Assembly (NCBI GenBank): GCA_965223845.1
Contig: CBDCXR010000004.1
Location: 3,040,001 to 3,104,000 of the forward strand
Source: Planctomycetota bacterium
GTDB lineage: Bacteria > Planctomycetota > UBA8108 > SXIK01
DNA length: 64,000 bases
Direction: 5' to 3'
This document shows positions 17,680 through 31,584 of the stretch, one piece after another. A program made the position numbers and the translations under genes. The notes under the pieces are model-generated. The model did not search any database. It was not told the origin of the DNA and saw only the letters and a list, made by a program, of their open reading frames with translations. How positions within the stretch are numbered: position 1 is the first letter of the stretch; every line of letters starts with the position of its first letter.

Positions 17680-18750
17680 TCACGCGCAGGACCCGCTCGT
17701 CACGCAGCTCAGTCCGTCCGGCGTGGGATCCGGTCCGCACGCGCGCCCCGGACTCGGCGGCGCGGGCCCCTGGCGATACAGATGAAAGAGGAGGAACAAG
17801 GCGTCGGAGACGCCGATGGCGCCGTCGTCGTTTGCATCGAGAGAGCTCGCGCAGACGACGATGGTGTCCACCTGGAAGAGACTGTTCAGGATCACGAGCG
17901 CGTCGGCGAGATCGATCGCGGAATCACCGTTCGTATCCCCGCGGACGAATCCACCCCCGCCGCAATCGACCGTGAGCGAGTACGCGCCCGTCTGGAGCGG
18001 CGTGAACGAGCTCACGAGTACATCGTACGTGCCCGCGGAGAGTGGAAGTTCGAGCGCCGCGGGAAAACCGGCGTCGGCGTCCGGCCTCGTGGCAGCGTCG
18101 ATGGGCTCGCAGTCCGCGCCGATCAATACGAGAAATGGGTCGAACTCTGCCGACCGGAGCTCGAACTGCACGCTTCCCGCCTCCGGGAGCACGACCCGGT
18201 ACCGGTCGAACGATTCACCGTCGGGAAGTCGACAGTCTTCGAGGCTGAGTGTCCCCTCGATCGACTCGCCGCACTCGAGCGCCTGTGACGGACAGATCGC
18301 GCAGGGATCGACGTTCGGCTCGCACTCGAGCGAGAGCTCGTACGCGCCGCGTACTCCCGGGTCCGAATTCGCGACGAGCACTACGTAGGAGCCCGGCTCG
18401 AGCTCTCCGCGAATGCACGCCGAATCGCCAGATTCTCCGCAGCGAGTGCTCGCATCGAGTTCGGTGCAGCTGTCGTCCGTGAGGAAGAGAATCGGATCGA
18501 ACGCTTCGGAACGCACGGAGAGCTCGTAGAAACCGGCGGCATCGATCTCGATCGGCCACGCGTCGAGAAAGACCCCGTCGTCCGGCTCGCAGCCGTTGCC
18601 TAGTTCCCGGACGGCGAGCTGTCCGCACTCGAGTGACCCGACGCCGCAGTCCGCGCAAGAGGTCACCCCACCCGTCGCCGGACGCAGAAAGGCTATGAGA
18701 GCCGCGATGGCGAACGCCGGTGTCGTCGAGCGGCGAACGACGGCGCTCAA
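17680..18750 (-). CDS. Secreted protein with two Cys-rich PPC-like domains and a C-terminal dockerin-like domain
   Basis: Two repeats with S.AFDP/S.EFDP..L, L..G.Y and GAY.L; FVRGDTNGD..DLADA..; TTG start overlaps the stop of the upstream regulator. Confidence 0.7.
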   Translation of the reverse strand: MSAVVRRSTTPAFAIAALIAFLRPATGGVTSCADCGVGSLECGQLAVRELGNGCEPDDGVFLDAWPIEIDAAGFYELSVRSEAFDPILFLTDDSCTELDASTRCGESGDSACIRGELEPGSYVVLVANSDPGVRGAYELSLECEPNVDPCAICPSQALECGESIEGTLSLEDCRLPDGESFDRYRVVLPEAGSVQFELRSAEFDPFLVLIGADCEPIDAATRPDADAGFPAALELPLSAGTYDVLVSSFTPLQTGAYSLTVDCGGGGFVRGDTNGDSAIDLADALVILNSLFQVDTIVVCASSLDANDDGAIGVSDALFLLFHLYRQGPAPPSPGRACGPDPTPDGLSCVTSGSCA

Positions 18751-19658
18751 GACTCAGCTCCTCGACCACGGAGGATCTCGTCGAGCGACACCTCGAACGC
18801 GTTTGCGATCTTCATGAGCGCGCCGATCGATACGTTCTGAGTGCCGCGTTCGATCATGCTGATGAAGGACCGCTCGACGCCAGCGGCTTCGGCTAGATTT
18901 CCTTGGCTCCAGCCCCGTCGCTTGCGGAGGGCGCGAATCGAATGACCGATGCCCGCGAGGTACTCGGACAAGGTCGGCCGCGTCGAGGAGACGCGAAATC
19001 GTTCCGACAGCAAATCGATCGCCTCGGCGAAGTTCTTCGCCCAGAGATCGACGCCCGGCAGTTCGTTTCCTCGCGCGACGAGAGCCGCGACCGCGCGCCC
19101 CCCCACCATCACGGCCGGAGCCTTTCGCGGCGCGGCCACGCGCCGCGTGAGCTCGGCGAGCCCTCCGATGTGTTCGTCCATCGTCACGGAAACCGCGACG
19201 AGGTCCGGCGACCGCTTCTCGGTGAATCGTTCCAGATCAGCGGCCGGGACGTCGCCGCCGAGGAAGTCCACGGTCCAGCCCTCCGAGCGGAGAATTCCCG
19301 CTAGCGCACGCGCACCGAATTCATGCGTTTCCCCCGGCGCCGCACAACAAACCGCGCGGAGTCCCGTGCGTCGGGACGCCGGGAACATCTCAGCGAGGCG
19401 ATCGACGTGGCGCGCACCGATCTCCGTGGAGCGATGCTCCTCCGCGACGGTGATTTGGTTCTCTTCCCACATCTTCCCGATGCGGGCGTGGGCGCGAGCG
19501 AGGATCGAGTCGCAGATGGCGGCGAGTCCGAGGCCGGCGTCGACCGCGCCGCCGAGAACCTGAAAGCCGGCGTCGAATCCACCCGCGAGCAGGGTGTCGG
19601 CGTACCGAATCGCAGTCCGATCGAGGTCCTCGGAGGCAGGGGAGCTGGAGTCATTCAC
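18747..19658 (-). CDS. Cobalamin-binding (CarH-type) sensor fused to C-terminal XRE/HTH_3 domain
   Basis: W-x9-EH (WEENQITVAEEH), PGETHEFG, FLGGDVP, SVT; C-terminal IRALRKRRGWSQ..LAEAAGV.RSFIS.IERG; start GTG 19658 or further upstream. Confidence 0.85.
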   Translation of the reverse strand: MNDSSSPASEDLDRTAIRYADTLLAGGFDAGFQVLGGAVDAGLGLAAICDSILARAHARIGKMWEENQITVAEEHRSTEIGARHVDRLAEMFPASRRTGLRAVCCAAPGETHEFGARALAGILRSEGWTVDFLGGDVPAADLERFTEKRSPDLVAVSVTMDEHIGGLAELTRRVAAPRKAPAVMVGGRAVAALVARGNELPGVDLWAKNFAEAIDLLSERFRVSSTRPTLSEYLAGIGHSIRALRKRRGWSQGNLAEAAGVERSFISMIERGTQNVSIGALMKIANAFEVSLDEILRGRGAES

Positions 19659-19668
19659 GGGCCGAATC

Positions 19669-19710
19669 CTGATTAATAAATTCTTCAGATTGACAGTCTG
19701 ATTTAAATAT
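19669..19710. promoter_or_regulatory. AT-rich divergent promoter region with 17-bp palindrome overlapping TTGACA
   Basis: TCAGATTG-A-CAGTCTGA at 19685-19701 (1 mismatch); TTGACA at 19690-19695; extra CTGATT at 19669. Confidence 0.55.
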
Positions 19711-19789
19711 GGCACAAAAGGGCCGCTGGGGGAAGAGGAATCCCCCCTTTCGTTTCGCTTCGGCCGGTCTGGCCTTCAAGGAGGTTGGG

Positions 19790-21112
19790 ATGAAACCCAC
19801 GCTCTCGTATTTCGGGGCTTTGTTGGTAGTTGGCTTGCTCAGTGCGCCCGCGTTCGCGCAAACGGGCACCGTAACCGTAGTCCACGGAGTACCGGGACTG
19901 ACCGTGGACGTCTACGTCAACGGCGATCTGACGTTCGAGGATTTCGCCCCGGACACGATCACCGATCCCATCGAGCTTCCCGTCGGTGACTACGACATCG
20001 CGATCACGGCACCCGACGCGGACATCGCGGACGCCGTCATCACCGGCTCCGCGGCGCTGACCGAGGGCGCTTTCGTTTCGATCGTCGCGCACCTCGCGGC
20101 CGACGGCAGTCCGACCCTCTCCCTCGTGCCGCTCGACCTGACGCCCTCGGACGAGGGAAGCCGACTCACCGTCGCTCACCTCGCCGCGGCTCCGGCGGTC
20201 GACATCTCGCTCCGCCGGGTCTTTCGCCGGATCGGAAAGGTCGAAGGCGCCGAAAACGGCGACAGCGCGACGCTCGATCTGCGCGCGGGCCTCTACTTCG
20301 CCAAGATCTTCCCGGCGGGATCGGACGACGCGGTGTTCGGCCCCGCGAAGCTCATCCTGCGCACCGGGTACCACCACGTCGTTTACGCGGTGGGTTCCCT
20401 TGCGGACGAGACGTTCAGGGTCCTCACGCAGAAGATCGAGATTCCCCCGGAGGTTCCGGCGACCAATCAAGTCTCGGTCGTTCACGGCGTGCCCGGAGCG
20501 ACGGTCGATGTCTTCGTGAACGGCGCTCTCACACTCGACGATTTCACGCCGGGCACCATCACCGATCCGCTCGCCCTCCCGGCCGGCGACTACGAAGTCG
20601 CGCTCACGGGGGCGGAAGGCGGCGATCCGAGCTCGCCGCTGATCTCCGACACGTTCACTCTGGGATCAGGACAAAACGTTTCGATCGTCGCGCACCTCAC
20701 CGAGGACGGTGCGCTGGCTCTCACCGCCTACGCAAACGACGTGTCGTCGATCGGCTTCGCACGAAGTCGCATCGTGGTGCGGCACAACGCAGCGGCGCCC
20801 GCCGTCGACGTCGCACTGCGACGATGGTTCTGGCGAGCCGCAAAGATCGAAGGACTCGCGAATCCCGACGAGGCCCAGGCGGACGTGATCGCTGGTCGCT
20901 ACTCGGCGACCGTCTTTCCGGCCGGATCCGACGATGCCGTGCTCGGCCCCGCTCGGCTCACTCTCCGCACGGGTGACGTCCAGGTCGTCTACGCGATCGG
21001 CTCGCTCGCCGACGAGAATCTCGGCCTCCTCGTTCAGCGGATTCCGGTGAACGACTGGCGCTCGAGCCTCTTCGATCTGCTAGCATCGCTCCTCGCTCGA
21101 CTCGCTCGGTAA
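19790..21112 (+). CDS. Secreted tandem DUF4397 domain protein
   Basis: AAGGAGG RBS before ATG 19790; signal peptide; two ~200-aa repeats with VVHGVPG.TVDV.VNG and H.AAAPAVD. Confidence 0.85.
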   Translation: MKPTLSYFGALLVVGLLSAPAFAQTGTVTVVHGVPGLTVDVYVNGDLTFEDFAPDTITDPIELPVGDYDIAITAPDADIADAVITGSAALTEGAFVSIVAHLAADGSPTLSLVPLDLTPSDEGSRLTVAHLAAAPAVDISLRRVFRRIGKVEGAENGDSATLDLRAGLYFAKIFPAGSDDAVFGPAKLILRTGYHHVVYAVGSLADETFRVLTQKIEIPPEVPATNQVSVVHGVPGATVDVFVNGALTLDDFTPGTITDPLALPAGDYEVALTGAEGGDPSSPLISDTFTLGSGQNVSIVAHLTEDGALALTAYANDVSSIGFARSRIVVRHNAAAPAVDVALRRWFWRAAKIEGLANPDEAQADVIAGRYSATVFPAGSDDAVLGPARLTLRTGDVQVVYAIGSLADENLGLLVQRIPVNDWRSSLFDLLASLLARLAR

Positions 21113-21351: not shown

Positions 21352-23538
21352 ATGCGACCAGCTTCCTTGATCTCGAGTGCGCTTCTCGGCGCCCTGCTCG
21401 CCGCCGGCGCCTGGTGGCTGTTGTCGAGATCGCTCGAGTCCGATTCGAGAGAGGTCGACACCGGAAACCGGGAGCCCGAGGTGGTCGACGCGCCGACCGG
21501 CGCGCCGGATGCGCCGATTTCGGACGCGCACGTCGGATCGGATTCCGTCGAGCCCCTCGATTCCGACGCACGGACGCTTCCGGTCGCTCCGCTCAGCCGT
21601 TCTCTCGTCGGCCGCGTGGTATCCGCGGAGGACGGCGCGGCGATCGAAGGCGCTCTCGTCGAGATCGCGCTCGATCTCCCCGGCGTACCGATCGACTCGC
21701 GTCCGCTCGCGCGGACCGAAACCGCCGGAGACGGACGGTTCGAGTTCTCGAGCTTGCCGGGACTTGGTTTTCGCGCGCGCGCATCTCACGACGGGCACCT
21801 CGATGCGACGCTCACGGGACTTCGGATCGGAAGCGAGATCGAGTTTCGCCTCGAGCCCGGCGCCCCGCTAGCCTGCCGAATCGAGCGACGTTCGGCCTAT
21901 GGCGTCGAGCCGATTCCGGAGTGCCGCGCTCGACTCCAGATCGCCGGTTCCGGCTGGACTCGAACCATCGAGAGCGATCGATCGGGAATGGCGACGATCT
22001 CGGGCGTCACGCGGGAGCAACTCGCTCGAGCCGCAGAGCTCGGTGAGCTCGAGCTCGCGGTTCCGGGGTACGTCGCTGCCGCGATCGAGCTGCCGCAAGA
22101 CCCGACGGGCCCGGCCGTACTTCTTTCTGCGGCGCGCGGTACGACCATTGCGGGTCGAGTCGTCGATTCGGTAACGGGAGCGGGGATAGAACACTCGAGC
22201 GTCACTACCGACGGGAACGCCGAGGTCGAAACGGATCACCGCGGAAGGTTCCGGATCCACGGAGCGGAGCGGTGGCTGCTTGCGAGCGCCGCCGGATACA
22301 CCCCGGCCGGAATCGATCTCCTCGCGCGAACCGATCTTTCCGATCTCTCGGATCCGCCGGTGGAGATCCAAGTGACTGTCGAGCTCGACGCGGGACTCAC
22401 TCTCCACGGCCGCGTCCTTCGACCCGACGGCACCGGAGTCGGCGGTGCGGAGGTCCTCGTCGATCCTCGCATGCTCTCGCGCCACGAGCTCCAGTCGGAG
22501 TGGACGGAGAGCGCCCTTCGATCCGGCTCTTGTCGCACGGACGCGAACGGGAACTACCGTCTGGACGGCATCGCTCGAAAGTGGATCAACGCGTCCGGAA
22601 ACCTCGCCCTACGAGTACGACCCGCGAGCTCCCACGGCTGGGTCGTTCACTATGTCCACCTCGATCTCACCTCCGCCGAATTCGCCCACGACGTCGTTCT
22701 TCCCCTCGGGAACGCAACGGGTTCCGTGCGAACGGCCGGCGGCGAGCCCGCGTCGGGTGCACGAGTTTCGGTCGCGTCCCTCGACGGACGCATCGGCCAG
22801 AGCGCGATCGCGGACGAGAGCGGCGATTTTCAACTGATCGATCTTCCCGCCGGACGGTTTCAAGCTGCCGTCGAGCACGCCGGTGCCACTCGAGTCGTCA
22901 CGACGCTCAGCGTTCCGTCGGAGCGACTCGAGTTTTCGCTCGATCCTACCCACGCGGTACGCGCTCGGATCGGCCTCGGCGCTCACCCGCTCCCTCCCGG
23001 TTTCTCGGTAGCGATCCCGCTTCTCGACCGAAAGATCCGCATCGAGCTGAAGCGCGCGCCCGACGATCGGGGGATCGTCGAGTTCGGCGACGTCCCTCGG
23101 GGGGCGTACCCGCTCCGCGTTCTGGCTCCGAGTCCGCACGCACCGTTTCTCCCTTACCCGGAGCAGTTCGAAACGCGGATTCACGTCGGAGACCAAGACT
23201 GGGAGGGCGACGTCGAGTATCCCATCGAGCCCGCGGGGACGGTCCTCTTCTCGTTCGCCGCAGAGGGCGGCGCGTCCCTCGAATCCGTAGAGATCGCAGT
23301 CCTCCATTTCCGGGGAGGATTGCATCGATACGGGTCGCCGTCGAGCTCGAGCAAGCGTTCGCACCGCCTCGCGATCGCTCGCGAGGAGTATCGCGCGCTC
23401 CTTCGCCCGGGCGACTACCTTTTCCGCTTCCGCTCGATCGATCCATCCGCAACGAGCCTCGAGTCGCGAGAGCGAATTGTCGTCCGTCGCGACGAACAGG
23501 CCGAAGCCGCGGTCGTGCTTCGTGCGCGCTCGCGCTGA
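21352..23538 (+). CDS. Membrane-anchored protein with carboxypeptidase-regulatory-like (Cna-B type) repeats
   Basis: N-terminal TM, acidic linker, repeated G.V...G..I.GA.V...TD..G.F motifs. Confidence 0.75.
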   Translation: MRPASLISSALLGALLAAGAWWLLSRSLESDSREVDTGNREPEVVDAPTGAPDAPISDAHVGSDSVEPLDSDARTLPVAPLSRSLVGRVVSAEDGAAIEGALVEIALDLPGVPIDSRPLARTETAGDGRFEFSSLPGLGFRARASHDGHLDATLTGLRIGSEIEFRLEPGAPLACRIERRSAYGVEPIPECRARLQIAGSGWTRTIESDRSGMATISGVTREQLARAAELGELELAVPGYVAAAIELPQDPTGPAVLLSAARGTTIAGRVVDSVTGAGIEHSSVTTDGNAEVETDHRGRFRIHGAERWLLASAAGYTPAGIDLLARTDLSDLSDPPVEIQVTVELDAGLTLHGRVLRPDGTGVGGAEVLVDPRMLSRHELQSEWTESALRSGSCRTDANGNYRLDGIARKWINASGNLALRVRPASSHGWVVHYVHLDLTSAEFAHDVVLPLGNATGSVRTAGGEPASGARVSVASLDGRIGQSAIADESGDFQLIDLPAGRFQAAVEHAGATRVVTTLSVPSERLEFSLDPTHAVRARIGLGAHPLPPGFSVAIPLLDRKIRIELKRAPDDRGIVEFGDVPRGAYPLRVLAPSPHAPFLPYPEQFETRIHVGDQDWEGDVEYPIEPAGTVLFSFAAEGGASLESVEIAVLHFRGGLHRYGSPSSSSKRSHRLAIAREEYRALLRPGDYLFRFRSIDPSATSLESRERIVVRRDEQAEAAVVLRARSR

Positions 23539-23614: not shown

Positions 23615-24505
23615 TCACCGTCGCGAGCGATCGGGCCGATGGTACAGCGCACGCGCGAACTCAGCGAGTTGCTCCATTGTATCGCAGTGCGCAGTCGATC
23701 GAATTCGTGCGCGCGTCCGGTCGTCGATCGCTCGCCCGCCGACCACGACGGCGACATCGAGCTTTCGTGCGCTGTCGTAGAGACGGGAGTATTCCCCGAC
23801 GAATTCCTCCACCGATTGGAGGTGAGCGACACTGATCCAGACAAGGGACGGTCGTTCCGTGCGAATCGCGTTCTCGAGGCTGGCCGGCGGCAAATCGACG
23901 CCGTAGGCCTCCGCGCGCCACCCGAGATCGCGAAGAGTCAGCTCCGCCATGGCCGAACCGATCGAGTACGGATCGCCGGAAAGGGATCCCCCGATCGCGT
24001 ACGGCGCGTCTGGGGCGGGCGCGTCGATCATTCCCCGCAGCTCGTGAAGAAAACGGGAGCAGATCTCGCAGGCGCGACGCTCTTGGTAGACGTCGACGCG
24101 ACCGTGTTCCCACGCGTCTCCGATCGCAACGAACGCGGGCGCGATCTCACGGTCGAAGAGCTCCGGAAGTGCGACTCCGGCTACGAACCGTGCGAGAGCG
24201 AGACTCCGAAACGCGCTCTCGTCGCCGGACTCGAGCGCCGCCCGAAACGAGTCGCTCGCGAGATCATCGCGGGACCCCGAGTCCTCGGTCTTCGGAAACG
24301 CGTCGGCGATTCCGAGGCGTTCGGGGTCCTCGGCGCTCCGTCCGCTCGCGCGGAGGAACGAAATGACACTCGCGGTGGTGATTCGACGGTGTCCGCCCAC
24401 GGTCCGCGTCGTGGCGAACACTCCCTTGTCGCACCAACGCTTGATCGAAGCCTCGCTCACCCCCAGAGCGATCGCCGCCTCCCGCGGCGAGAGCGAGTCC
24501 CTCAT
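23615..24505 (-). CDS. MerR/excisionase-type HTH + degenerate cobalamin-binding domain regulator (CarH/LitR-like)
   Basis: LSPREAA..LGVSEASIKRWCDKG...T.GGHRR; W-x9-ER; GDPYSIG; YGVDLP; VGGRA. Confidence 0.85.
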   Translation of the reverse strand: MRDSLSPREAAIALGVSEASIKRWCDKGVFATTRTVGGHRRITTASVISFLRASGRSAEDPERLGIADAFPKTEDSGSRDDLASDSFRAALESGDESAFRSLALARFVAGVALPELFDREIAPAFVAIGDAWEHGRVDVYQERRACEICSRFLHELRGMIDAPAPDAPYAIGGSLSGDPYSIGSAMAELTLRDLGWRAEAYGVDLPPASLENAIRTERPSLVWISVAHLQSVEEFVGEYSRLYDSARKLDVAVVVGGRAIDDRTRARIRSTAHCDTMEQLAEFARALYHRPDRSRR

Positions 24506-24670
24506 TCGTCTCGCCCCCGAAGATCGAGTTCGTCCCCAACCGCACGCCTCGCGGCCCCGCGCTCGCCCCTCGGCTTCCGATCGCGGCCGTCTCCCCGACC
24601 GCTATGAGCCGGCGGCAGACGCCCCGAGTCCACGTGCGCGCACCGGCGCTCAGCATCGCGCAGCGACCAG

Positions 24671-24696
24671 ACCATCAAATCGTTCAATACGTTCAC
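24671..24696 (-). promoter_or_regulatory. Putative operator (9-bp tandem repeats) facing the CarH-like regulator
   Basis: Minus strand reads G TGAACGTAT TGAACGATT TGATGGT. Confidence 0.6.
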
Positions 24697-24774
24697 AGCT
24701 CGCCTGATCTCGAGGTCCACAGCGACCATGTTCGCTTCCGTTTTCGATTTTTCAAGACATCTTCGAGAATCGCA

Positions 24775-24806
24775 TTGACACCCACCTCTCCCGCCTTGAT
24801 AGTAAT
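24775..24806 (+). promoter_or_regulatory. Putative sigma70 promoter of the desaturase operon
   Basis: TTGACA at 24775-24780, 17-bp spacer, then GATAGT(AAT). Confidence 0.5.
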
Positions 24807-24817
24807 CGTCGTCTCGA

Positions 24818-24845
24818 GTGAACGTTTTGAACGTTTTTGTGATGG
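24818..24845 (+). promoter_or_regulatory. Putative operator (9-bp tandem repeats) facing the desaturase operon
   Basis: G TGAACGTTT TGAACGTTT TTGTGATGG; near-inverted copy of 24671-24696. Confidence 0.6.
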
Positions 24846-25834
24846 GCCACCCGACGTTGTCTGCCCCGAATCATGCCCCGAAATCCCGTACGCGGGAAGG
24901 CTGCCTCGCGCGGTGGCTCGTGAGCGATCCACCCGTTCCGACGCCAAGCGCGGACGACGATCGCATCGACTGGCTCCGCTGCGCGCCCTTCTTCCTCGTT
25001 CACGCCGCCTGCCTCGGCGTCTTCTGGGTCGGCGCGAGTGCGTTCGCGGTCGGAATCGCGATCGGCCTCTACGTCGTGCGCATGTTTTTCATCACCGCGT
25101 TCTATCACCGTTACTTCTCGCACCGATCCTTCAGAACGAGCCGCTGGGTGCAGTTACTAGGGGCCGTAGGAGCCTGCACCGCAGCCCAGCGCGGCCCGCT
25201 TTGGTGGGCCGCGCACCATCGCCACCACCACGCTCACTCCGACGGCCCGTCGGACAAGCACTCCCCGCGGCACCGGGGCATGATCTTCAGTCACATCGGC
25301 TGGTTCATGACACGCGGAAACTTCTCGACCGATCACCGTTACGTGCGGGACTGGGCCCGTTTCGCGGAGCTCCGCTTCCTCAATCGGTTCGACTGGGTTC
25401 CGTTTGTCGTTCTCGGCGCAGTTCTGTTCGCCGTCGGCGAGCTGCTCGAAGCTCGACGGCCTCACTGGAACACAAACGGCGCTCAGCTTCTCGTGTGGTA
25501 CCTGATCTCGACCGTGGCTCTCTACCACGTCACGTACACGATCAACTCGCTCGCCCATCGCTTCGGGTCGCGGCGATTTGAAACGCGGGACGACAGCCGG
25601 AACAACGCGATGCTCGCGCTCCTCACGCTGGGGGAGGGCTGGCACAACAACCACCACCACTATCCCGCTTCGGCGCGTCAGGGCTTCTATTGGTGGGAAA
25701 TCGATCTCACGTTCTATGTCCTACGATTCTTCGCCGCCCTCGGAATGATCTGGGGCCTTCGCCCGGTGCCGGAGCACGTGCGCGCCGCCGGCCGACCCGG
25801 CAAAGCAGCGCCGGCGCTCGAGGAGGCGCGATGA
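24842..25834 (+). CDS. Acyl-CoA (delta-9 type) fatty acid desaturase
   Basis: His boxes HRYFSH, HRHHH, GEGWHNNHH; TM helices. Confidence 0.92.
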   Translation: MGHPTLSAPNHAPKSRTREGCLARWLVSDPPVPTPSADDDRIDWLRCAPFFLVHAACLGVFWVGASAFAVGIAIGLYVVRMFFITAFYHRYFSHRSFRTSRWVQLLGAVGACTAAQRGPLWWAAHHRHHHAHSDGPSDKHSPRHRGMIFSHIGWFMTRGNFSTDHRYVRDWARFAELRFLNRFDWVPFVVLGAVLFAVGELLEARRPHWNTNGAQLLVWYLISTVALYHVTYTINSLAHRFGSRRFETRDDSRNNAMLALLTLGEGWHNNHHHYPASARQGFYWWEIDLTFYVLRFFAALGMIWGLRPVPEHVRAAGRPGKAAPALEEAR

Positions 25835-27111
25835 CGAGGATCACCGTAGCCAGTCCGCGTCCTCGCATCGCCATCGTGGGAACCGGAATTTCGGGTCTGG
25901 TCTCCGCCTACCGGCTTCACGACGAGCACGAGATTACGGTGTTCGAAGCGAGCGATCGCATCGGCGGGCACACCAACACCGTCCCGATCGAGCTCGACGG
26001 GAAGGACTATCGGATCGACACCGGGTTCATCGTATTCAACGAGCTCCACTACCCGAAGTTCACGCGGCTGCTCGCTGAGCTCGGCGTCGCGTCGCGGCCG
26101 ACCTCGATGAGCTTCAGTGTACGCTGCGACCGCACTGGGATCGAATTCAACGGCACGTCACTCCGAACGCTGTTCGTGCAAAAGCGAAACCTTCTTCGCG
26201 CCGGGTTCTGGCGGATGCTTCGCGACATCGTCCGGTTCGGTCGGACCGCGCCGAAGCTTCTCGAGGCGCCGGATTCGCTCTCGGTTCGCGCGTACCTCGA
26301 GAGCGCCGGATACAGCGAAGGATTCCGCGAGCGGTACCTCCTCCCGCTCGGTTCGGCGCTCTGGTCTTGCTCGAGCGAGACTTTCTCGTCGTTTCCGATT
26401 CGATTCGTGGTGGAGTTTCTTCACAACCACCACATGCTCCAGCTGCGCGATCGACCCGTGTGGCGGGTCATCGAAGGCGGATCGCACCGGTACGTGAGCG
26501 CGCTCACGCGTCCGTTTCGGCATCGCATTCGAACTCGCTGCGCCGTGCGGTCGATTCGCCGCTACGACGACCACGTGAAGCTCATCGGCGCGACCGGCAG
26601 CGTCGAACGCTTCGACGAGGTCGTCCTCGCCTGCCACGCCGATCAGGCGCTTCGACTCCTCGAGGATCCATCTCGCGATGAAGAGCGGATCCTCTCCAGC
26701 TTTCCGTACCAACGGAACGAGGTCGCGCTTCACACGGACACGTCGGTCCTTCCTCGAGACCGGCGCGCGTGGGCGAGCTGGAACTATCACATCCGCACGG
26801 ACCGTCCGCGATCGGCGACCGTCACGTACGACATGAATCTGCTTCAAGGGCTCGTCGCCCCAAACGAGTTCTGCGTGACGCTCAACGATACCGAAGGAAT
26901 CGACCCCGCGAAGATCCTCCGGCGCATCAGCTACGACCACCCGACCTTCGATCACCGACAGTCCGCGGCGCAAAAGCGACACGCAGAGCTGATTCGCAAC
27001 CGGAGAACGTCCTATTGCGGAGCCTACTGGGGCTACGGGTTCCACGAAGACGGCGTGCGCAGCGCGACTGCGGTCACCGAAGCGTTCGGGAGGCAGTATG
27101 TCCCGCAATAG
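25831..27111 (+). CDS. FAD-dependent oxidoreductase (COG2907; UfaD-like)
   Basis: [44 protein letters not shown]; ATGA overlap with the desaturase. Confidence 0.88.
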
Positions 27112-27871
27112 CTGCGTCTACTCCGGACGGGTTCGGCACCGGCGGCATCGTCCCGTCGAGCACGAATTCAGCTACTCCGTATTCATGGTCTATCTCGATC
27201 TGGCCGAGCTCGACGACGTCTTCCGCGGACGTTGGCTGTGGTCCGTCGAGAAGCCCAACCTCGCCGCATTCTTTCGGCGCGACCATCTCGGACCCCGCGG
27301 GGAGACGCTCGAAGAGTCCGTTCGTGAGCTCGTCGCGGAGCAGACCGGACGCCGTCCGAGCGGCCCGATTCGGCTCCTCACGCATCTCCGCTACTTCGGC
27401 TACACGATGAATCCGGTGAGCTTCTACTACTGCTGGAACACCGAAGGAACGGCGGTCGAGTACCTCGTCGCGGAAGTGAACAACACTCCGTGGGGCGAGC
27501 AGCACTCCTACGTCGTCGATCGCACCAAGGCCGAGGTTCGGCGGGGTTGGACCCGCGCCGCCTTCGGAAAGGAGTTCCACGTCTCTCCGTTCATGGCGAT
27601 GGACCAGACGTACAACTGGAGCTTCTCGGAGCCCGGACCGGAGCTCTTCTTTCAGATGGAAAACCGCGAGTCCGACGAAGTCGTGTTCGACGCATTCCTT
27701 CACCTTCGCCGGCGCGAACTCACCGGACGAACGCTCGCCGCGACTCTCGCTCGTTACCCGCTCATGACGACGCAAGTCGTCGCGGCGATCTATTGGCAAG
27801 CGTTTCGGCTGTGGCTGAAACGCTGCCCCTTCCACCCTCACCCGAAACACTCGGAGGGAGTCAGCCCGTGA
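27098..27871 (+). CDS. DUF1365 family protein (UfaO-like)
   Basis: [40 protein letters not shown]. Confidence 0.9.
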
Positions 27872-29163
27872 CCACGAGCGAGACCATCCGACCTCAAGAA
27901 ATGGACCGGACGGTTCTGGGCGAGAGCCCGAATCCCACGCGTCTCGAGCCGATGGGCGCCGCGGATCGACTCGCGAAGCGCGTCGTCGAGCAACGATTGT
28001 CGGCCCTTCCCGGCGGCGGCATCACCGTTGTGAGCGAAGCTGCGAGCATCCCCGACGATCGTCGCCCGAGAATCCGAGTTCGCGATCCGAGGTTTTACCG
28101 TCGCGTCATCCGCGGAGGAACGATCGGCGCCGCCGAGGCCTACATGAACGGCTGGTGGGAATGCGATGATCTCGCGGCCCTGATCCGGGCCCTAGTCCGT
28201 CACATCGAAGTCGCGGACGGACTCGACACGGGCACGACTCGGATCCGGCGGCTCGCCGAGCGCGCTGGACATTGGCTTCGCCGAAACACGCGACGCGGCA
28301 GTCGGCGAAACATTCATGCGCATTACGATCTCGGGAACGATTTCTTTCGTCTCTTCCTCGACCCGAGCCTCACCTACTCGTGCGGAATCTTCGAGGAGGC
28401 GACCTCTACCCTCGAAGAGGCATCTCAGGAAAAACTGGATCGCATCTGCCGAAAGCTCCGCCTCGCTCCACACGACCGCCTGCTCGAGATCGGTTCCGGC
28501 TGGGGAAGTTTTGCCCTTCACGCAGCGGCGAACTACGGCTGCCGGGTGACAACCACCACGATCTCAAGCGAGCAGTTCGAGCTGGCTCGCGAGCGCGTTG
28601 CGAAGGCGAATCTCTCCGAACGCGTGACGGTTCTCCTCGAAGACTACCGCCAACTGACCGGTCGTTACGACAAGATCGTCTCGATCGAGATGATCGAAGC
28701 CGTCGGTCACGAGTTTCTCCCGGAGTACTTCGGAAAGTGCAGCGCTCTTCTCGAACGACATGGCGCGATGCTCCTTCAGGCGATCACCATGCCGGATCAC
28801 CGTTACGAGCGATATCGGCGATCGGTCGACTTCATTCGAAAGTACATCTTCCCCGGAAGCTGCGTCCCATCGGTCGCCGCGATGAGCTCAGCCATCGCGA
28901 AATCGAGCGACATGCGCTTGACGCACCTCGAAGACATCGGGATCCACTACGCGACGACGCTTCGGCACTGGCGCGAGAGGTTTCTCGCGCACCGAGAAGA
29001 CGTGCGCGCTCTCGGGCATTCCGAATCCTTCGTTCGGCTCTGGGAATTCTATCTCGCCTACTGCGAGGCTGGTTTCGCCGAACGATATCTCGGTGACGTG
29101 CATATGCTTCTCGTCAAGCCGGGATGGTCGCCGAGCGTGGTCTCGAGTCCGGGCGAAGGATAA
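27868..29163 (+). CDS. cfa: Cyclopropane-fatty-acyl-phospholipid synthase family methyltransferase (UfaM/CfaS-like)
   Basis: [50 protein letters not shown]; GTG start overlaps the DUF1365 stop. Confidence 0.9.
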
Positions 29164-29166
29164 GTC

Positions 29167-29715
29167 GTGATTCGCTCCGGCGTCTTCATCAACGCGGGTC
29201 TATTCCAAGCGAGCTGGTTCACGGCCGTCATCGGAGCCGCGCACGGTCGAAGCGGGATCGGGCCGATCGCGATCGCGACCTGGGTCGCGTTCCACCTAGC
29301 TCTGAGCCGAGAGCGGGTCAGCGAGCTCGCTACGATCCTCGCGGCGATCGCCGTGGGCTACGTCACGGATTCCCTGCTCGTCTCGGTGGACGTCTATCGG
29401 TTCCATGACGACAACGGAATCGTCCGACCCACGCGAATCTGGATGCTCGCGCTCTGGGCGAATCTCGGAGCGACCCTTCGCTCCTCCCTCGCTTGGCTAC
29501 GCGGCCGAACCGCACGTGCGGCCGCCAGCGGCGCACTCAGTGCCCCGCTCGCGTACTACGGCGCGGCGAAGATCGGCGCGATTGCGATACCCTCACCCCT
29601 GCCGCCGCGGTTCACCGCGATCGCCACGGGTGGAGCCCTCGCGGTGGCGGCGATCGCGGCGTTCGCTTCGGCGTGGGACCGGCCACGCGGCGCCTCGACG
29701 GAGTCTCCGCCATGA
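29167..29715 (+). CDS. DUF2878 family membrane protein
   Basis: N..LFQ..W, W...LW, SL.WL, PL.YY.A pattern; operon context. Confidence 0.8.
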   Translation: MIRSGVFINAGLFQASWFTAVIGAAHGRSGIGPIAIATWVAFHLALSRERVSELATILAAIAVGYVTDSLLVSVDVYRFHDDNGIVRPTRIWMLALWANLGATLRSSLAWLRGRTARAAASGALSAPLAYYGAAKIGAIAIPSPLPPRFTAIATGGALAVAAIAAFASAWDRPRGASTESPP

Positions 29716-30521
29716 CTCTCGTCATCACTGGAGCGATCGGCTGGATCGTCACCGCGCTCGTGATGGTCCTTCTCTGGTTACGGCAGAAGCGAACGAAGAA
29801 CGCAGGGATCGTCGACGTGACGTGGGCGACCGGCGTCGGCGCTCTCGCCATCGCGTTCGCCGCCGTCGCCGATGGCGAGCCGATCCGCCGGTCTCTCGTC
29901 GGCCTGTGTGCGGGCGTTTGGTCCCTTCGGCTCGCGCTCCATTTGCTTCGGCGTATGACCGGACGCCCTGAAGACGGCCGTTATGCCGACCTTCGCACTC
30001 GTTGGGGAACCCGCACCGAGGTGTATTTCTTCGCCTTCTTCCAAATCCAGGCTCTCTGGGTGGTCCTCTTCGCGGTTCCGATGGCGGTCGCCGCGCGCAA
30101 CCCATCCGCCCTGGGGTGGACCGATCTAGCCGCAGTGCTCGTGTGGCTCGTCTCGATCGCGGGAGAGAGTATCGCCGACCTACAACTCGGACGCTTCGTG
30201 TCCCGGGAAGAGAACGCGGGGAAAGTGTGCCGGGCGGGACTTTGGCGCTATTCACGCCATCCGAACTACTTCTTCGAATGGCTCCACTGGTGGGCGTATG
30301 TCCTCTTCGCGATCGGGTCGAACGGAGTTTGGTTCACTGCAGCGGGAGCCCTCGTCATGCTCTACTTCCTCCTTCGAGTCACCGGGATTCCGCCGACCGA
30401 GGCCAGAGCCCTCTCGAGTCGAGGTGAAGCCTATCGTGAGTACCAACAGACGACGAGCGCGTTCGTCCCCTGGCCGCCGAAAGAGAGAGGATTCGCAAGT
30501 GGGAACGAAACTGATCATTGA
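29712..30521 (+). CDS. DUF1295 family membrane protein (steroid 5-alpha reductase-like)
   Basis: [36 protein letters not shown]; ATGA overlap. Confidence 0.9.
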
Positions 30522-31584
30522 CTGCATCGAGCGGGGCTGGGTGCCCGATGCGCTGGTTCGAGCAGGAATTCGTCGACTGTGTCGAGAGCGACTCAAGCAG
30601 GAGCGAAGCTCCGCGTGCGAAGAACGACGCGACCGAGCACGACAATTCCTGTCCGAGATGGCGGCGGCGCCGATCGCCCCGTTGCCGCATGCGGCGAACG
30701 AGCAGCACTACGAGCTCCCGGCCGAGTTCTTCGGACTCGCACTCGGTAGCCATCGAAAGTACAGCTGTGCGTACTGGCCGAAGGGAGTGACCTCGCTCGA
30801 CGACGCAGAGGAGGCGGCGCTCCGAATCACTTGCGAGCGGGCGGAGCTCGCCGACGGGCAAGACATACTCGAGCTCGGCTGCGGCTGGGGATCGCTGACT
30901 CTGTGGATGGCCGAACGCTATCCACGCTCGCGGATCTTGGCGGTCTCCAACTCGAGCTCGCAGCGACGGTTCATCGAGGGTCTCGCACGCGCTCGAAGTC
31001 TGCCAAACGTCGAAGTCGTCACTTGCGACATCAACCGGTTCTCCACCGATCGCACCTTCGATCGCGTGGTGTCCGTAGAGATGTTCGAGCACCTCCGGAA
31101 CTACGAGCTGATCCTACGGCGTATTTCGCAGTGGCTGCGTCCGCAAGGCCGTTTGTTCATTCACGTCTTCTGCCATCGCGATTCCGCCTACACGTTCGAG
31201 ACGGATCGCGACGACGACTGGATGGGTCGTCACTTCTTCACCGGCGGAATCATGCCGAGCGACGACCTCCTCCTCCACTTCCAGGACGACATGCGAGTGG
31301 CAAATCACTGGCGCTGGAATGGAATCCACTACGCGAAGACCGCGAACGCCTGGCTGCACCGGTTCGACCGACACGAATCCGAGATTCGTGAGCAGCTCGT
31401 TCGCACCTACGGACCTACCGAGGCCGAACGCTGGCGCCACCGCTGGCGCATTTTCTTCATGGCCTGCGCCGAGCTGTTCGGATTCCGCAGCGGTGAAGAA
31501 TGGTGGGTCGCGCACTACCTCTTCGCCGCGCCTCGCGAGAGAGTTGCGACAGCGAATCCGAGTGCGCGAGTAGCGGTGAGCTGA
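30499..31584 (+). CDS. Cfa-like class I SAM-dependent methyltransferase
   Basis: [45 protein letters not shown]; GTG start at 30499. Confidence 0.88.

Follow-up and report, generated by a model that had tools for sequence, protein, structure and literature searches.

We identified, in a 64,000-nucleotide stretch of a planctomycete genome (Planctomycetota bacterium, assembly GCA_965223845.1, contig CBDCXR010000004.1, forward strand, positions 3,040,001 to 3,104,000; hereafter the window, whose numbering we use), the gene of a regulator that joins a probable B12 photosensor module to an XRE/Cro-C1-type helix-turn-helix (HTH) domain at its C-terminus. The best sequence and fold matches of its cobalamin-binding domain (CBD) are B12 photoreceptors, not corrinoid methyltransfer proteins, and the protein is a member of a large family, which we term CBD-XRE, rather than a one-off. 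Our reading, to which we give a probability of about 0.6, is that the gene encodes an adenosylcobalamin (AdoCbl)-dependent, light-released, CarH-like photoreceptor-repressor outside the MerR-type CarH/LitR group. The observations that carry this reading are the domain content, the signature motifs and the fold of the protein, the size of its family, and the photoprotection-type neighbours and operator-like repeat found with its relatives.

Sensor module and C-terminal DNA-binding domain

The regulator gene lies within an open reading frame on the reverse strand, 18747-19715, that would encode 322 residues at full length. Alignment with the family places the start at the GTG codon 19656-19658, giving a protein of 303 residues and leaving room for an N-terminal extension of 19 residues at most. 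In the 322-residue frame, Pfam recognised B12-binding_2 with 29.9 bits (cut-off 23; E 6.4e-07), B12-binding with 63.8 bits (cut-off 32.1; E 1.7e-17) and, at residues 260-314, HTH_3 with 58.4 bits (cut-off 23; E 7e-16). The Pfam scan of the regulator returned no MerR or HTH_17 match, the four-helix bundle of the AlphaFold2 model (pLDDT 93.6, pTM 0.84) begins at residue 7, and NCBIfam TransRegCarH, the CarH equivalog model, scored 57.9 bits against a cut-off of 400. The initial annotation had described a CarH-type module without an N-terminal MerR HTH, followed by a C-terminal XRE domain at about 18770-18950, and had quoted two intact cobalamin motifs. All of this was confirmed, with the domains placed as listed in Table 1.

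The first of these motifs, GKMWEENQITVAEEH, spans residues 61-75 (nucleotides 19434-19478), and the second, PGETHEFG, spans residues 108-115 (19314-19337) and contains the lower-ligand histidine, His112. A further motif, GGDVP (G134-P138), is encoded at 19245-19259. Yu et al. (2024, PMC11796333) describe GxxW, EH, GxxH and GxxxP as the signature of light-responsive CBDs, which, with its Wx9EH cap, sets these apart from other CBDs. The window protein carries every element: G61-K-M-W64, whose Trp forms the adenosyl cap (Gly in 132 and Trp in 129 of the 139 full-length family members); E74-H75, ten residues past that Trp (132 and 127 members); G109-E-T-H112 with the lower axial His (136 members); and G134-G-D-V-P138 (Gly in 133, Pro in 134).

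Among solved structures, the photocobilins 8j2x, 8j2w and 8j2y ranked best by sequence (E 7e-20 to 4e-18), and further matches were found to CtMerR from Chloracidobacterium thermophilum (8jbs, E 2e-14) and to TtCarH from Thermus thermophilus (5c8a, E 5e-10). The model shows a four-helix bundle and a Rossmann fold as in the solved photoreceptor CBDs. Its residues 10-225 superposed on photocobilin 8j2w with a VIA Z of 26.3 and a root-mean-square deviation (rmsd) of 1.9 over 206 residues, a further Z among the best photoreceptor fold matches being 25.5. The same residues gave a Z of 23.5 with the CtMerR CBD (8jbs; Foldseek TMt 0.83-0.85, rmsd 3.0) and of 19 with TtCarH (5c8d; rmsd 2.8-3.1 over 191-197 residues).

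None of these matches has the architecture of the window protein. In the photocobilins (SasPcob, 8j2w/8j2x; AbDPcob, 8j2y), the C-terminal part is a globin-like domain that binds biliverdin, GGDEF being present or absent, whereas the window protein has an HTH domain and lacks a second chromophore domain. Of the DNA-binding photoreceptors, CtMerR (8jbs/8jbt) comes structurally closest over the full module; it carries a MerR domain at its N-terminus. CarH and class I LitR (TtCarH 5c8a-5c8f, 8c31), which occur in Myxococcus and Bacillus as well, possess the same sensor, a four-helix bundle with the Wx9EH cap and a Rossmann domain with ExHxxG, and presumably share the AdoCbl photolysis switch with the window protein; their HTH, in contrast, is of the MerR type and N-terminal. 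AerR differs in being a stand-alone CBD without a DNA-binding domain, and AerR 7te2 (213 aa) matches the CBD part only.

The output domain is a five-helix HTH_3 domain scoring above the gathering cut-off. Model residues 226-303 superposed on the restriction-modification controller proteins C.BclI (VIA Z 14.2) and C.AhdI (VIA Z 13.5, rmsd 0.7), and, more generally, controller proteins and SinR (1y7y, 2b5a, 1b0n) fit the C-terminal 75 residues with an rmsd of 0.7-1.5 and Z of 12-14. Those proteins are small, sensor-free, stand-alone dimers, whereas the HTH of the window protein serves as output for a B12 module of 225 residues. This HTH has VERSFISMIERGTQN as its recognition region, unlike the family consensus LDR[TA]YISxVExGKQN. 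Some XRE-type controller proteins of restriction-modification systems act both as activator and as repressor.

The residue that follows the capping Trp is glutamate (E65) in the window protein, where TtCarH has His132, the source of its bis-His ligation after photolysis. The initial annotation had singled out this substitution, and the residue is indeed as described, although it carries little weight. In a MAFFT alignment of the 139 full-length members, 54 have His at this position, 18 have Glu and 15 have Ala, and the rest carry other residues. CtMerR has Arg at this place, SasPcob Gln and AbDPcob Tyr, and every one of them is photoactive; CtMerR passes from tetramer to monomer in the light (PMC11796333). 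Since only 54 of the 139 members have His and CtMerR photoswitches with Arg, a glutamate here is ordinary and does not mark a special class. It does leave the output step open.

An alternative enters at this step, namely that the protein is a B12 photoreceptor which signals without tetramer disassembly, either as a constitutive dimer whose two XRE domains are re-oriented by light or as a light-dependent activator. Because the His of the bis-His state is missing and TtCarH H132A is unable to monomerise, light-driven disassembly is not assured; the photocobilin CBDs, the nearest solved relatives, keep their oligomer state in the light when biliverdin is absent (PMC11796333). The resemblance of the HTH domain to restriction-modification controllers points the same way. 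Yet CtMerR, with Arg for His, still goes from tetramer to monomer (PMC11796333), and we consider signalling without disassembly unlikely compared with light-released repression.

The CBD-XRE family and the surroundings of its genes

When 1.84 billion representatives were searched exhaustively with HMMER, a profile built from four sequences yielded 2,168 matches at E <=1e-30. The best 150 of these were nearly all about 300 residues long and matched end to end, the weakest with E 5e-56. We collected 151 sequences, 139 of them at least 270 residues long, and put 135 into a domain-scan alignment, where all 135 carried B12-binding_2, B12-binding and HTH_3; the architecture thus occurs in at least 135 clusters at 50% identity. 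A word-indexed search, which had returned only three other such proteins among 28 matches and had made the architecture look rare, was overturned by this result. The window protein aligned with the family profile at 309.8 bits over positions 5-295 of 298, as a full-length, collinear member with the architecture, length and conserved residues of the others. All eight signature residues are kept in 96 of the 139 members, and the W, E, H and H in 120. In the HTH domain, three residues (R245, E270 and N275) do not vary at all, and four (Q252, R263, Y265 and G272) are each conserved in at least 90%.

When one genome per species was considered, 464 of 471 pattern matches encoded a relative. The best 80 came from Dehalococcoidia/SAR202 (Chloroflexota), freshwater Bdellovibrionota, Rokubacteria/Methylomirabilota, Fimbriimonadales, Acidobacteriota, Bipolaricaulia and Ca. 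Uabimicrobium amorphum, and the family is found in soil metagenomes as well. Metagenome contigs yielded 444 confirmed relatives, the best 80 of them only 30-37% identical to the window protein. Within the Planctomycetota, 42 of 401 sampled genomes gave a match at E <=1e-40, with both halves of the protein matched in only three of the 42; the other matches listed end by profile position 248. None of the two same-family and six same-order genomes that we searched gave a match.

A full-length tree placed the window protein as sister to a regulator from a Myxococcales metagenome-assembled genome (MAG; locus L112) with an SH-aLRT of 98, both branches being long. This pairing is tentative: trees built from the CBD or the HTH alone gave no supported set, and when L112 was left out the window protein attached nowhere with support.

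Members of the family bear automatic database names of the kind 'methanogenic corrinoid protein MtbC1/DNA-binding XRE family transcriptional regulator'. Light-responsive CBDs are stated to occur fused to HTH domains on the N- and the C-terminal side (PMC11796333), and no bench characterisation of a CBD-XRE protein was found in our literature searches, which covered that paper without its supplements, where the architecture may be depicted. The proposal in the initial annotation of a distinct class of B12-dependent light-switched regulator therefore needs qualification. The class is neither singular nor newly visible, given its many clusters, the database labels and the published mention of C-terminal HTH fusions; what stands is a module with the full signature and the fold of B12 photoreceptors, attached to a C-terminal XRE domain in proteins for which the literature gave no bench characterisation.

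We examined gene context at 72 genome loci and 73 metagenome loci, calling neighbours crudely as the longest non-overlapping open reading frames followed by a domain scan. At the genome loci, neighbours included a short-chain dehydrogenase/reductase (SDR) with DUF1731 (11 loci), a DICT-domain protein (9), a photolyase (8), DUF2867 (5), YbgA/DUF1722 (5) and a flavin amine oxidase (5, three of them then followed by DUF1295). At least one photoprotection-type neighbour (photolyase, DUF1731 SDR, DUF2867, YbgA or amine oxidase) was present at 27 of the 72 loci, related loci not being independent. At the metagenome loci, where 120 neighbours were scanned, a DUF1731 SDR lay directly upstream in 19 of 73, a polyprenyl synthetase directly downstream in 13 and a carotenoid synthesis protein downstream in two. 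By association only, these neighbours are the kind of regulon that CarH/LitR controls. A conserved divergent gene with a DnaJ domain was found at 25 of the 72 genome loci, in a Bdellovibrionota-type clade; it encodes a protein of about 345 residues with the DnaJ domain N-terminal and goes with the LDRAYIS sub-family (e.g. L084, 4818-5888).

The context bears on whether such a protein might sense cobalamin supply instead of light, AdoCbl or another corrinoid serving as co-repressor so that its genes are set by B12 availability. Intact B12 domains, together with window neighbours that are not photoprotection genes, would suit a supply sensor. Against it, light-responsive CBDs are marked off by the signature, Wx9EH cap included, and HaAI-2E, which is free of the signature, bound hydroxocobalamin (OHCbl) only (PMC11796333). 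Moreover, the family sits among photolyase, carotenoid and lipid photoprotection genes rather than genes for B12 uptake or B12 enzymes, and a scan of the window with Rfam gave no family at the gathering score, cobalamin riboswitch included. We hold a supply sensor to be improbable and retain the light-released repressor as our reading.

Upstream regions of the regulator genes (200 nt) shared TGTAGAA/TTCTACA as their commonest non-trivial word. It occurred in 18 of 72 such regions compared with 9 of 227 intergenic stretches elsewhere in these loci; over 500 shuffles the mean count was 2.25 and the highest 7. Nine loci (L048, L063, L066, L090, L062, L098 and L103-L105) contained an inverted repeat of exactly 48 bp, GTAG-N40-CTAC, with half-site centres 42 bp apart on either side of a sigma-70-like divergent promoter of the TTGACA-17-TATAAA type. 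It is exemplified in L048 by GTAGAATAT-N30-ATATTCTAC, where the opposite strand reads TTGACA, 17 nt, TATAAA between the arms. A half-site spacing of 42 bp is unusual for XRE proteins and suggests a higher oligomer clamping the promoter. LDRTYIS was present in 18 of 20 motif-positive rows and LDRAYIS in 26 of 38 motif-negative ones, a correlation that phylogeny confounds.

The planctomycete locus and other B12 genes of the genome

Table 1. Features of the regulator locus, in window coordinates
Feature	Position	Strand	Basis
CBD-XRE regulator gene; 303 aa, GTG start, TGA stop	18747..19658	-	open reading frame, family alignment, Pfam, AlphaFold2
B12-binding_2 four-helix bundle, residues 20-80, with GKMW...EEH (Wx9EH)	19419..19601	-	Pfam PF02607; model helices 7-90
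Rossmann-type B12-binding domain, residues 102-204, with GETH and GGDVP	19047..19355	-	Pfam PF02310, E 1.5e-17
C-terminal XRE/Cro-C1 HTH, residues 241-295	18774..18938	-	Pfam HTH_3 (PF01381), 58.4-58.7 bits against cut-off 23
Divergent intergenic region, AT-rich island (GC 0.46), candidate operator/promoter	19659..19789		repeat and composition analysis
Secreted protein with two DUF4397 domains, divergent; candidate target	19790..21112	+	Pfam PF14344, E 1.7e-45
Secreted Cys-rich protein, weak PPC and dockerin matches, downstream	17680..18750	-	Dockerin_1 E 3e-4, PPC E 1e-3, both below curated cut-offs

The divergent intergenic region is 131 bp long. It contains the direct repeats CTGATTAATAAAT (19669-19681) and CTGATTTAAATAT (19698-19710), 29 bp apart, as well as an inverted repeat, TCAGA-N7-TCTGA, at 19685-19701 and a TTGACA at 19690-19695 on the forward strand. 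The arrangement CTGATT-N23-CTGATT occurs at this promoter only across the 7.9-Mb genome, so that a wider regulon is not predictable from the repeats of this locus. Transfer of the family operator to the window was dropped, as TGTAGAAT is not enriched there, and a lone TGAAGAAT at 19680-19687 is no evidence for it. An 11-mer of the regulator gene's promoter, ATAAATTCTTC, has one other site in the genome, at C4:2479655-2479692 (L008), where we estimate that about 0.3 would be expected; this copy, a post hoc observation, precedes a small XRE gene that stands alone, at a distance of about 30 nt. The leader of the DUF4397 gene contains, past the AT-rich island and ahead of the start codon (19728-19746, forward strand), a GC-rich stem-loop followed by a T-rich run, which looks like a terminator or attenuator.

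The DUF4397 gene has a GGAGG preceding its ATG, and the N-terminus of its product resembles a signal peptide. It is the sole DUF4397 gene of the genome, a genome-wide search having returned its two domain matches only, and no described function for DUF4397 was found in the literature searched. Elsewhere in the family an adjacent DUF4397 gene was seen only in the Myxococcales MAG (L112), L197 being the same sequence in a metagenome. As the pairing of the two regulators was confirmed neither by the domain-wise trees nor by the run that left L112 out, the repeated adjacency is the better evidence for a functional link. On the other side, the TTG start of the 17680-18750 gene overlaps the TGA of the regulator as TTGA, so the two genes are probably co-transcribed and translationally coupled. 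A 728-residue secreted protein with three CarboxypepD_reg domains is encoded at 21352-23538 on the forward strand, between the DUF4397 gene and an HTH_17 regulator gene. Between 17680 and 23538, the regulator gene is thus surrounded by genes for three secreted proteins. The context of the relative in the planctomycete Ca. Uabimicrobium (L088) was uninformative.

That HTH_17 regulator (23615-24505, reverse strand), four kb away, combines HTH_17 with B12-binding_2 and B12-binding. It has Tyr for the lower-ligand His (GDPYSIG) and Arg for the His of EH (YQER), which suggests that this paralogue is probably B12-independent. Myxococcus CarA is likewise B12-independent, its B12 module being an oligomerisation scaffold that works without cofactor. 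If the module of the CBD-XRE protein were a cofactor-independent scaffold of this sort, the protein would be an ordinary XRE repressor, and the paralogue, with both histidines lost, demonstrates that such decay happens in this genome. However, the CBD-XRE protein and the 96 family members mentioned above keep all eight signature residues, which argues for purifying selection on the cofactor site and makes a mere scaffold very improbable beside an AdoCbl-dependent repressor.

The paralogue faces a forward-strand cluster at 25690-31584 that encodes a flavin amine oxidase, DUF1365, a cyclopropane-fatty-acid-synthase (CMAS)-like protein, DUF2878, DUF1295 and a second CMAS-like methyltransferase. 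This cluster is 4-12 kb from the CBD-XRE gene, and the same families flank the relatives L075, L096 and L102 in Bdellovibrionota MAGs. An AT-rich stretch (24650-24850, GC 0.47-0.53) lies inside the over-called reading frame 24604-25581 and has a TTGACA at 24775-24780; together with a tandem GAACGTTTT x2 at about 24816-24836, it may serve both the cluster and the HTH_17 regulator as a promoter/operator.

Elsewhere, at C4:4207313-4207858 (forward strand, L003) and C4:4443955-4444407 (reverse strand, L005), the genome has two canonical CarH/LitR genes of the MerR type, in which Wx9EH, GERH and LGxxVP are intact. Counting the CBD-XRE gene, B12 photoreceptor regulators that carry the signature number three, and they use two kinds of DNA-binding domain. 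The genome further encodes MetH and an adenosyltransferase of the PduO type (E 4.5e-57), whereas a search for CobA gave nothing in the near-complete (91.7%) assembly, in which the 7.87-Mb contig is one of four.

Besides the doubts over disassembly and oligomer state set out above, several points weigh against a light-released repressor. That the protein binds the cofactor, responds to light and acts as a repressor is inferred, as are its oligomer state and its targets in this genome. The window protein is a long-branch member with at most 36-39% identity to any relative, and its recognition helix, VERSFIS, is unique among 75 proteins compared, the family having LDR[TA]YIS instead. Carotenoid, photolyase or lipid genes adjoin the relatives, whereas its own immediate neighbours (DUF4397, PPC/dockerin-like and CarboxypepD_reg) are not known photoprotection genes. 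The family motif TGTAGAAT, allowing at most one mismatch, gave 9 matches in the window against 10.6 expected, and a scan of 19659-19789 for sigma-70 consensus promoters scored none.

A possible mechanism and its significance

If the gene does encode a light-released repressor, AdoCbl would be held in the dark by the B12 module, with His112 under the cobalt and Trp64, Glu74 and His75 as a cap over the adenosyl group. The AdoCbl-bound module would self-associate and thereby set paired XRE domains on an operator within 19659-19789. This would repress the regulator's own operon, consisting of the regulator and the secreted PPC/dockerin-like protein, or the divergent DUF4397 gene, or both. Green or UV light would cleave the Co-C bond, with loss of the oligomer or of its geometry and release of transcription.

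A broader picture, which we offer tentatively and regard as somewhat doubtful, is that CBD-XRE proteins may constitute a second, independently wired class of B12 photoreceptor-repressors, whose dark oligomer would clamp a promoter by two half-sites that, in the relatives, are about four helical turns apart. In this picture, a divergent sub-branch comprising the planctomycete and the myxobacterial MAG would have been re-targeted together with a DUF4397 partner, and what light remodels would be proteins that are secreted or at the cell surface, not pigments or DNA repair.

To our knowledge, no green-light B12 gene switch other than CarH has been studied well, and CarH is already in optogenetic use. 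The initial annotation had foreseen such a use for the present protein; if our reading is true, CBD-XRE would offer a second, orthogonal DNA-binding chassis for optogenetics, with the same sensor and a small XRE domain at the opposite end. It would also test whether the B12 switch is independent of the site and mode by which the DNA reader is attached. The presence of two canonical CarH genes and a decayed paralogue in the same genome makes this organism convenient for studying how regulons are divided among B12 photoreceptors. Finally, the family is widespread in abundant uncultured groups, among them SAR202, freshwater Bdellovibrionota and soil lineages, and may be a main route of light sensing there.

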